From contig OZ241329.1 of assembly GCA_965199825.1 (NCBI GenBank), forward strand, positions 896,001-960,000: a stretch of 64,000 nucleotides of DNA, given 5' to 3'. The DNA comes from Bdellovibrionales bacterium (lineage in GTDB: Bacteria > Bdellovibrionota > Bdellovibrionia > Bdellovibrionales > UBA1609). The notes beneath the pieces are model-generated. The model did no database searches. It saw nothing but the letters and a program-made list of their open reading frames with translations, and was not told the DNA's origin. Made by a program: the position numbers and the translations under genes. This document shows, in pieces, positions 7,874 through 57,907 of the stretch. Numbering within the stretch: position 1 is the stretch's first letter; every line of letters starts with the position of its first letter.

Positions 7874-7882
7874 GGGTTGGGT

Positions 7883-8055
7883 TTGTCGTGCCCGCTTTGT
7901 TTTTGGGATTGTTCATTGCTTGAGTGGTTTTGGTTCTGGGATTCATATCTGTTCGGTGGGATTGTGGTGCCCGTTTTTTGTTTTTGGGATTGCTCGTTGC
8001 TTGAGTGGTTTTGGTTCTGGGATAATATCTGTGCGGTGGGATTGTCGTGCCCGCT
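7883..8055. repeat. Imperfect tandem duplication, 79-80 bp unit, about 2.2 copies, G/T-rich
   Basis: Units start at 7883, 7962 and 8042, each with TTGT(C/G)GTGCCCG; units 1 and 2 share TTGCTTGAGTGGTTTTGGTTCTGGGAT. Confidence 0.92.
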
Positions 8056-8298
8056 GAGTCGGGCGTGCTTTCTCTGCATTTTATTTTCAATTTTCGTTGA
8101 CACATTTTGTTGCAGCTTTAGTTGGCCTACATTTGAATTTTACGAGGCAAAACATTTTTTCTTCTGCGCTGAACATTGCAAATGAATTGTAGAGACAAAG
8201 ACTAAGCAAACAGTGGCGTTGAGCACTCCATCTGACACGCCTTAAAAACTGGTTTTTGAAAAGCCATGATACACTTCTATCATAAACAGGAGATATTT

Positions 8299-9123
8299 AT
8301 GGATCATTCAAAAATTCATTTTAATGCGGTGACCGCCGCCGCAGCTCATCGCAAAACCGAAATGGAATTGCTCAATGCTTTGGAACTCGTTTGGAAAAAT
8401 AAAACCTTTTCGCAGTATGGCTGTCGTTCAATGTTTGAATACTCAACTAAGGAACTGAAGCTGTCCGAGGAGATGGCGAGTATCGCAAATAAAATCGCAA
8501 AAAAATTTACCGAACTTCCCGAACTTAAATTAAAAATGGAATCGGAGGAGCTGTCCCTTTCAAAAGTGAATCGCATCACCGCAGTCGTTAACAAAGAAAA
8601 TGTCGATCACTGGGTCAATGTGGCCAAAGGGACTAAACGCCATCTCGAAAAAGAGATTGCAAAGGTCCAACCCGAAAAAGTCATTCCTGAGCGGGCACGA
8701 TATCAAAAGGCGGGTGATACGTTGAGAGTCGTGATTTCATATTCAATGACCCAGGAAGAATTTGCGATGCTTGAACGAACACAAGATCTCTTAAGTCAAA
8801 AATTGAAACGCCCGGCTTCAATCGCTGATGTTCATCTGGCGGCACTTAAGGAGCTTCATCAAAAGCTTGACCCATTAGAAAAACCGATTCGCCAAAAATC
8901 TGCGGGCACGATAAAGTTAACCATTAATCTTAAGCGAAAAGTCCATCACAAATTCAATAGTCAATGCAGTCATGTCGATGAGAAAGGCGAACGATGTGCT
9001 CAACGTCGCCACCTTGATATCCATCACATTATTCCACAATCAAAAGGTGGCACCCATGAGGAAGACAACCTTACGATATTATGCGCTGGCCATCATCGTG
9101 CCCACCATCGAAAAGTACACTAA
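8299..9123 (+). CDS. HNH endonuclease with DUF222-like helical N-terminal region; probable selfish or mobile insertion
   Basis: C-terminal CSH..RC...LDIHHIIPQSKGG...NLTILCAGHH; N-terminal GCRSMFEY..ELKLSE..A..P.L....LSLSK; AGGAG RBS before ATG 8299; interrupts deoC-deoA. Confidence 0.85.
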   Translation: MDHSKIHFNAVTAAAAHRKTEMELLNALELVWKNKTFSQYGCRSMFEYSTKELKLSEEMASIANKIAKKFTELPELKLKMESEELSLSKVNRITAVVNKENVDHWVNVAKGTKRHLEKEIAKVQPEKVIPERARYQKAGDTLRVVISYSMTQEEFAMLERTQDLLSQKLKRPASIADVHLAALKELHQKLDPLEKPIRQKSAGTIKLTINLKRKVHHKFNSQCSHVDEKGERCAQRRHLDIHHIIPQSKGGTHEEDNLTILCAGHHRAHHRKVH

Positions 9124-57499: not shown

Positions 57500-57711
57500 G
57501 GGCGAACACTCGCATAAGGATTTGCAAAAAGCACTTGGCGATTTGGACACCGGTTGTGAGCTGCTCAGCGCATTTTTTTAGTGGGAATAGCTGTGGTTGG
57601 GACCGGCGAAGCCTGGGCCGCTCGGGATTATTGAAGGCAGGTTTGGTACTAGTTTATATGAAATCGTAGAGCCATTGATGTTCTTAAATATGCGATGCGA
57701 ACGATGGTACA

Positions 57712-57907
57712 AGCGGGCACGACATTCAGAGCGGGCACGACATTCAGAGCGGGCACGACATTCAGAGCGGGCACGACATTCAGAGCGGGCACGACATTCA
57801 GAGCGGGCACGACATTCAGAGCGGGCACGACATTCAGAGCGGGCACGACATTCAGAGCGGGCACGACATTCAGAGCGGGCACGACATTCAGAGCGGGCAC
57901 GACATTC
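57712..57907 (+). repeat. Perfect 18-bp tandem array (AGCGGGCACGACATTCAG) x10.9
   Basis: 10 identical units plus 16/18 of an 11th; no spacers. Confidence 0.97.

Follow-up and report, generated by a model that had tools for sequence, protein, structure and literature searches.

The 64-kb window (the whole 64,000-nucleotide stretch analysed) carries, between deoC and deoA, a gene for a 274-residue HNH protein with copies of the 10-mer GCGGGCACGA (the motif) in and around it. The features of this locus, and of a motif array elsewhere in the window, are:

7878-8055, strand not given: 81-bp tandem duplication (2.2 copies) forming the left flank, with motif
7884-7896, - strand: upstream motif copy as a 13-mer (10-mer exact at 7886-7895)
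7963-7975, - strand: degenerate upstream motif copy with two mismatches in the 10-mer
8043-8055, - strand: proximal motif copy and left end of the element, where homology to the sister copy starts (10-mer exact at 8045-8054)
8046-8067, + strand: terminator-like 8-bp hairpin with the motif as its 5′ arm; the sister copy lacks it
8088-8109, + strand: box A, an A/T-rich stretch, TTGAC (8097-8101) and a T tract, resembling an UP element plus -35 with no -10 behind
8110-8259, no strand: spacer between boxes A and B, conserved in length and variable in sequence, with no RNA structure
8260-8275, + strand: box B, an A tract plus an extended -10-like TG-N-TACACT, likely the gene promoter
8288-8292, + strand: Shine-Dalgarno sequence AGGAG
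8299-9123, + strand: HNH protein gene, 274 aa, likely start ATG at 8299, with the last few residues and stop supplied by flanking DNA
8587-9107, + strand: tract of 521 bp without any difference from the C1:876424 paralog; it stops two bases past the 3′ motif
8691-8700, + strand: exact motif in E-R-A-R codons, codon-locked
8902-8911, + strand: exact linker motif in A-G-T codons (antisense, as S-C-P, in 13 other paralogs)
9096-9105, - strand: motif with one mismatch in the H-R-A-H (HHRAHH) codons, codon-locked, the right end of the element
57712-57907, + strand: solo tandem array, 18 bp x 10.9, with one motif per unit and 100% identical units

Within the window the motif occurs in 15 exact copies and three with one mismatch, 18 matches against a mean of 2.92 and a maximum of 8 in shuffled sequence; 11 of the exact copies lie in the array (57713-57902). 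All exact copies listed in the initial annotation (two on the + strand in the gene, two on the - strand upstream, and the array at 57712) are present, as is the two-mismatch variant at 7963-7975. That annotation also read 8059-8067 as a decayed copy. The segment does form the 3′ arm of the hairpin, but it lies more than two mismatches from the motif and is not a decayed copy, and the one-mismatch copy at 9096-9105, in the last HNH helix, had been overlooked.

The gene had been described as splitting a deo cluster, and comparison with relatives agrees: the deoC-deoA gap is at most 150 bp in 17 of 24 relatives' loci and an HNH gene is found at none of the 24, so that the gene here is an insertion. 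The 3′ end of the element also precedes deoA in one related strain. No empty site was found at nucleotide level, and contigs of four public sequencing runs contained no empty allele of the deoC-deoA site.

The taxa of Atlas hits suggest a Bdellovibrionota-like host. Its 2.84-Mb genome (G000) contains 28 paralog loci with identities of 43-100%, a motif within 2 kb of each, and different neighbours at every one. Each element has a single ORF, and a profile search for DDE, serine, tyrosine and HUH transposase or recombinase domains found none. A selfish multicopy element, as first proposed, is therefore supported by 28 paralogs at unrelated sites. With 300 exact copies, besides 115 of a GTG variant, the motif is one of the most frequent 10-mers in the genome, and the genome-wide count ties it to the HNH paralogs, contrary to an abundant repeat unlinked to them. 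The core motif is found upstream of 27 of the 28 paralogs, compared with a random mean of 1.05 (maximum 5 in 2000 draws), and the upstream copies are polar, with 151 in one orientation and 1 in the other. The core 8-mer has 522 copies, 234 of them in or within 1.2 kb of a paralog, a space that makes up 3.3% of the chromosome. The 288 located more than 1.2 kb from any gene copy comprise 200 clustered copies and 88 singletons, the latter within the range of permuted 8-mers (median 42.5, maximum 130). The 13-mer is present in 116 copies here and in at most one copy in each of 60 relatives. About ten motif matches at C1:204280-238827 are coding repeats (P-A-G-T) in large repetitive genes, unrelated to the element.

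Other dispersed words were observed in the same genome. A Y1/HUH (RAYT-like) family occupies 17 loci on C1 (e.g. 247156-247440, 507668-508000 and 591238-591570) and has its own non-palindromic motif, TGACA(T/C/G)TGCCC, upstream of 14 of the 17 genes; 39 of the 46 genomic copies of this motif lie upstream in one orientation, a layout like that of the HNH element with a different enzyme. The top over-represented word besides the HNH motif is the dispersed 12-mer ACC(T/A)TCGT(T/A)C(A/G)C (165 copies, 122 of them in ORFs, with no clear strand bias; 57698-57709 in the window), possibly an uptake-sequence-like host signal. For a related pattern, 15 of 147 copies are no more than 300 bp away from the HNH motif, where 4.1 would be expected.

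Codon usage across the paralogs bears on how the motif is maintained inside the gene. In the HRAH codons, Arg is CGT in 24 of 24 paralogs and Ala is GCC in 23 of 24; in the ERAR codons, CGG, GCA and CGA are used in 19 of 21, 19 of 20 and 22 of 24. The same-codon fraction elsewhere is 0.29-0.65 for conserved Arg columns and 0.32-0.76 for conserved Ala columns. The linker motif is found in 23 of 25 paralogs, in sense (A-G-T) in 10 and antisense (S-C-P) in 13, and is absent in two. The translation set covered 26 of the 28 paralogs and the codon alignment 25. The median pS over 276 paralog pairs is 0.71 and dN/dS among paralogs is 0.13-0.16. Because the codons are locked although synonymous sites are near saturation, the motif is constrained at the DNA level, and one word in four frames and orientations is beyond what protein constraint can produce.

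Tandem arrays are likewise built on the motif, as the initial annotation had noted for the one in the window. The chromosome contains 18 head-to-tail motif arrays (256 copies, units of 16-25 bp) whose spacers differ between arrays, and the first five motif bases are invariant over 193 adjacent-unit comparisons. All 14 chromosomal arrays with a period of at least 10 and at least five copies carry the motif, many of them far from any gene copy; for arrays of at least three copies on all contigs the figure is 16 of 24. Some solo arrays have units in common with element flanks, and so may be relics rather than new products. Contigs C3, C4 and C5 contain long internal duplications with periods of about 3.4, 2.1 and 12.2 kb, and are probably concatenated circles or assembly artefacts; C5 also contains tandem arrays of 60 bp and 21 bp, and these lack the motif.

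The ends of the element were defined from young copies. In the closest paralog pairs, homology begins at or near the last upstream motif (at it or within about 10 nt in four of the five closest) and ends 0-17 bases past the 3′ motif, and a truncated copy matches its sister over precisely the interval bounded by the upstream motif and the linker motif. The window copy and C1:876424 are 92% identical overall, with 521 bp identical up to 9107 and many differences further 5′, a pattern from which we infer recent gene conversion. No conserved stop codon is present at the right end. The initial annotation had found no transposase and no obvious terminal repeats. The former holds at the level of domains; the ends, in contrast, are direct copies of the motif, rather than terminal inverted repeats. 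In the relative G026, pairs end at that genome's own palindrome. The left end is the better-supported motif boundary, since in G000 the right breakpoint is also where protein conservation ends, and since pairs from G139, G047, G027, G034 and G044 lose homology where the HNH frame ends, at a point that has no motif.

Two further observations concern the flanks. At two loci of G015 (L065 and L067), short-type HNH copies lie between long inverted repeats sharing words with the linker codons. Element flanks and solo arrays frequently contain a companion word, ACACCNNCGGA, at a distance of 18-60 bp from the motif; 15 of its 52 copies are within 300 bp of a motif (e.g. C1 246440, 512617 and 2565798), which suggests a longer left-end module.

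The HNH family occurs in 30 of the 61 relatives and in 72 of the 151 genomes of the phylum, and comprises 6,388 clusters at 50% identity (E ≤ 1e-30); it was not found in 50,697 phage records or in a plasmid collection. A metagenome scan gave 19 loci matching the HNH domain alone, which were excluded. Of 100 relatives' loci fetched, the 57 parsed were used for palindrome analysis. In 13 of 57 and 10 of 35 loci, the upstream region shares a word of at least 12 nt with the linker or 3′ part of the same locus, compared with 8 of 456 and 7 of 280 cross-genome control pairs, although the loci are kin and these counts overstate their independence; 44 of the 57 and 25 of the 35 have no exact shared word of this length. 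The words are private to a lineage, mostly palindromic and 16-18 bp long, and linker palindromes with arms of at least 7 occur in 28 of 57 loci vs. 9 of 57 controls. Three relatives' sites, checked in five genomes, were each restricted to their own genome (15, 26 and 56 sites). Of the 15 sites in the complete genome G026, the three cognate copies account for 13 and five other HNH loci for none, and where one host has two HNH subfamilies (G013, G015, G048 and G139) these carry different sites. Own-locus shared words, palindromes and genome-restricted sites thus support the idea of a private motif for each lineage. In G139, one recognition-helix sequence pairs with two different palindromes, so that no simple protein-to-site code is evident.

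A structure model of the 274-residue protein (mean pLDDT 88, pTM 0.52) suggests which parts might read and cut such a site. Residues 13-127 match four KorB/ParB/Spo0J DNA-binding entries (Z 5.8-6.9 over 90-97 residues), residues 143-198 the ribbon-helix-helix (RHH) proteins TraM, MazE6 and PutA (Z 4.3-5.0), and residues 205-274 the HNH domains of IscB (Z 7.1, the best), GVE2 and Gme, all below the tool's guide value of 8, a range that the tool treats as inconclusive. A Foldseek search with the model returned nothing at E ≤ 0.001. Several members of each fold family agree and weak Pfam matches point the same way, with HTH_ParB weakly matched in 11 of 112 family members. HNH is matched in all 112, and the catalytic and zinc-binding His, Asn, Cys and His are kept in 24 of 24 full-length paralogs. 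The protein is therefore predicted to consist of a ParB/KorB-type HTH (residues ~13-127), an RHH-like module (~143-192) and a zinc-binding HNH domain (~205-274). A helical N-domain that recognises DNA had been proposed; the predicted fold resembles sequence-specific DNA-binding domains, but the model adds a second putative DNA-binding module, the RHH, to the single one envisaged.

The designation "DUF222-like" holds in part. Neither the window protein nor its paralogs match PF02720 (DUF222) at the curated cut-off, but five of 112 family members match the profile (best E 5.8e-5) and two G147 homologs reach the cut-off. A cut-off-passing DUF222 homolog aligns end to end with the family (290 profile columns, 99.95%), and the Atlas cluster of the family is 12% DUF222 (score 0.95). 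By sequence, the HNH family is thus a distant relative of DUF222/13E12.

Upstream of the gene, 50 of 87 loci have box B (A tracts, then TG-N-TAnAnT), and in 49 of these box A (consensus A tract, TTGACR, T tract) is found at a distance of 159-182 bp, vs. 1-3 in control windows. In a second set, 12 of 40 loci have the box B pattern and 10 of the 12 agree. The spacings, mainly 160-164 and 179-182, are found across the phylum. No conserved -10 occurs at normal distance behind box A and no conserved -35 before box B, and by arithmetic the two boxes would stand about 17 bp apart if the stretch from the T tract to the A tract were deleted. Two candidates were rejected: a general host promoter, since none of 11 non-HNH box B sites has a box A, and a structured ncRNA in the spacer, for which mean folding z was -0.06 and -0.15 (23 loci) with no 10-bp A-tract period. 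An Rfam search upstream of the gene gave no real match. The A-B pair is specific to the element, and may be a promoter that is looped or split, or a pair of protein sites kept in phase. In the G052 copies, by contrast, the promoter appears to be compact.

Spread, linkage to the motif, codon locking, motif-bounded young copies, motif-built arrays and private sites are the observations that a mechanism has to explain. We propose a transposase-free element of about 1.06 kb whose own protein binds its own motif and nicks beside it, with host repair copying, converting and amplifying the sequence, a model that we consider evenly poised between right and wrong. One part of it, binding of the motif by the ParB-like domain, is likely. 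The protein would dimerise through the RHH module, and the ParB-type HTH would read a 16-18-bp site, palindromic in most lineages and here asymmetric and polar, about ANNTTGTCGTGCCCRCT. Typical ParB or RHH operators are palindromic, unlike the site in G000. The tethered HNH domain would then nick one strand nearby, and the 3′ end would be extended and switch template at a common motif. Switching to an element elsewhere would produce either a conversion tract or a new insertion between direct motif copies, and switching back by one unit would produce the 16-25-bp tandem arrays. The sites by box A and in the gene are probably also operators limiting expression of the nuclease. Site-placed nicking is plausible because an engineered HNH-zinc-finger fusion nicks beside the site of its binding domain (PMC3592412).

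The sites may instead be operators only, with the protein joining upstream and intragenic copies in a DNA loop and so repressing its own gene, mobility arising otherwise and the arrays growing by slippage. The clustering of sites just before box A and within the gene fits this reading, as do the KorB-like and RHH folds, both repressor folds, and the lack of a right-end motif in many relatives. It leaves unexplained the junctions and truncations at the motif, the 151-to-1 polarity and the long arrays, 14 of 14 on the motif and many far from gene copies, and we consider it unlikely, though a serious contender.

Another alternative arises from the Y1 family of 17 genes, which has a polar upstream motif of its own; here the element would be non-autonomous, the motif being the substrate of a HUH (Y1/RAYT-type) transposase acting in trans and the HNH protein a helper, like IscB/TnpB in IS200/IS605. 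Upstream motif copies at 14 of these genes end, like the HNH motif, in TGCCC, the relatives' sites are palindromic as REPs are, and the best HNH fold match is IscB. However, none of the 46 Y1 motifs lies near an HNH locus, the HNH motif is near one of 17 Y1 genes (1.2 expected), sites follow HNH subfamilies within one host, and G047 (98% complete) has 20 HNH matches and 56 site copies with no Y1 match. Action in trans is thus distinctly unlikely.

An RNA-guided system (OMEGA- or HEARO-like), with the A-B spacer or the motif cluster as guide RNA gene, would accommodate the IscB-like HNH and the length-conserved 160-180 bp behind a -35-like box; but with folding z near 0 on both strands at the 23 loci, no conserved -10 behind box A, no Rfam match, and a match to the IscB model confined to its HNH part (38.6 bits vs. 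a cut-off of 175), it is very improbable. A role of the motif as a host signal that the element collects or targets (a Chi-like, uptake or methylation site), as its rank among the commonest 10-mers and the 288 of 522 core copies distant from the gene might suggest, is scarcely tenable and already largely refuted, since 200 of those 288 are clustered and the number of singletons (88) is at background level, the motif follows no evident replichore pattern, the 13-mer is virtually confined to this genome (at most one copy per relative) and different subfamilies in one host have different sites. Two narrower candidates were rejected as well: Chi-like dispersal, on the background level of singletons, and retro-mobility, as the sole reverse transcriptase match in the genome is on the small contig C2 and the element includes DNA upstream of its promoter.

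If self-directed nicking is correct, the element could represent a new class of mobile element that combines ParB-HTH, RHH and HNH domains, uses no transposase, recombinase or guide RNA, nicks a private, evolvable 16-18-bp site in its own gene, leaves host minisatellites as a by-product, is driven by a promoter split by ~150-170 bp, and explains the 13E12/DUF222 hotspots. We put this wider proposal forward tentatively, with the chances somewhat against it. The family is large, and would then offer a natural collection of compact nickases together with their readable sites of 16-18 bp, and would provide a protein cause for the birth of bacterial minisatellites.

Several known systems share features with the element. 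Homing endonucleases spread by break-induced conversion, and cut a site at one locus that their own insertion disrupts. The element keeps the motif at both ends, multiplies its candidate site and occupies 28 unrelated loci. It does share with homing endonucleases and phage HNH nickases an HNH nuclease with an added DNA-binding domain, and related domains nick (PMC3592412). With IscB and the IS200-IS605 OMEGA systems it shares its closest HNH fold (Z 7.1) and transposase-less multicopy nuclease genes, but no RuvC or PLMP region is matched, no structured upstream RNA is present, and the DNA-binding domains are predicted to be of protein type. Residues 13-127 may have a fold like that of ParB, KorB and Noc, and the palindromes of 16-18 bp in relatives, many of them with a CCCGGG core, are reminiscent of NBS and parS; unlike those proteins, this one has no CTPase domain and is fused to RHH and HNH modules, and the element is not a partition locus.

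The mycobacterial 13E12/REP13E12 repeats are likewise multicopy DUF222-like plus HNH genes with conversion between paralogs (here 28 loci and a 521-bp tract), although their family is PF02720, which the window protein does not match. They are common, are among the strongest conversion and inversion hotspots of mycobacteria, and have no known mechanism: the portions of the reports at hand describe them as gene conversion hotspots (87 events in 10 of 14 regions; PMC13061034) and inversion hotspots (PMC13157036), and in those portions state that the regions have no defined function and describe no cognate site, domain anatomy or mechanism, while PMC10589994 merely names 13E12 among repeats. In the literature searched, main texts mostly outside subscription journals, we found no account of a cognate site for this HNH family. 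The present element offers DUF222/13E12 repeats a testable anatomy, in which the ends are defined, each lineage has its candidate site and one domain is predicted to read it.

REPtrons consist of a nuclease gene flanked by its own repeat family, further copies of which are scattered through intergenic DNA; a genome can have several pairs of gene and repeat, and in one subclass the gene itself also contains repeats (PMC6006769). The element resembles them in its gene-specific repeat family, both flanking and dispersed. The REPtron enzyme is HUH, whereas Pfam detects only HNH here; REPtrons have about one gene per REP type and apparently do not transpose, whereas the element's gene is multicopy and moves as a unit. 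The REPtron repeat is a GT[AG]G foot plus hairpin; the G000 motif is asymmetric without such a foot, and the relatives' sites are palindromic. The element's site, unlike those of REPtrons, is codon-locked and occurs in head-to-tail arrays. The REPtron is thus the closest functional analogue, from which the element is set apart by its HNH enzyme and spreading gene, and its anatomy is new for a known kind of repeat and possibly defines a new class of element.
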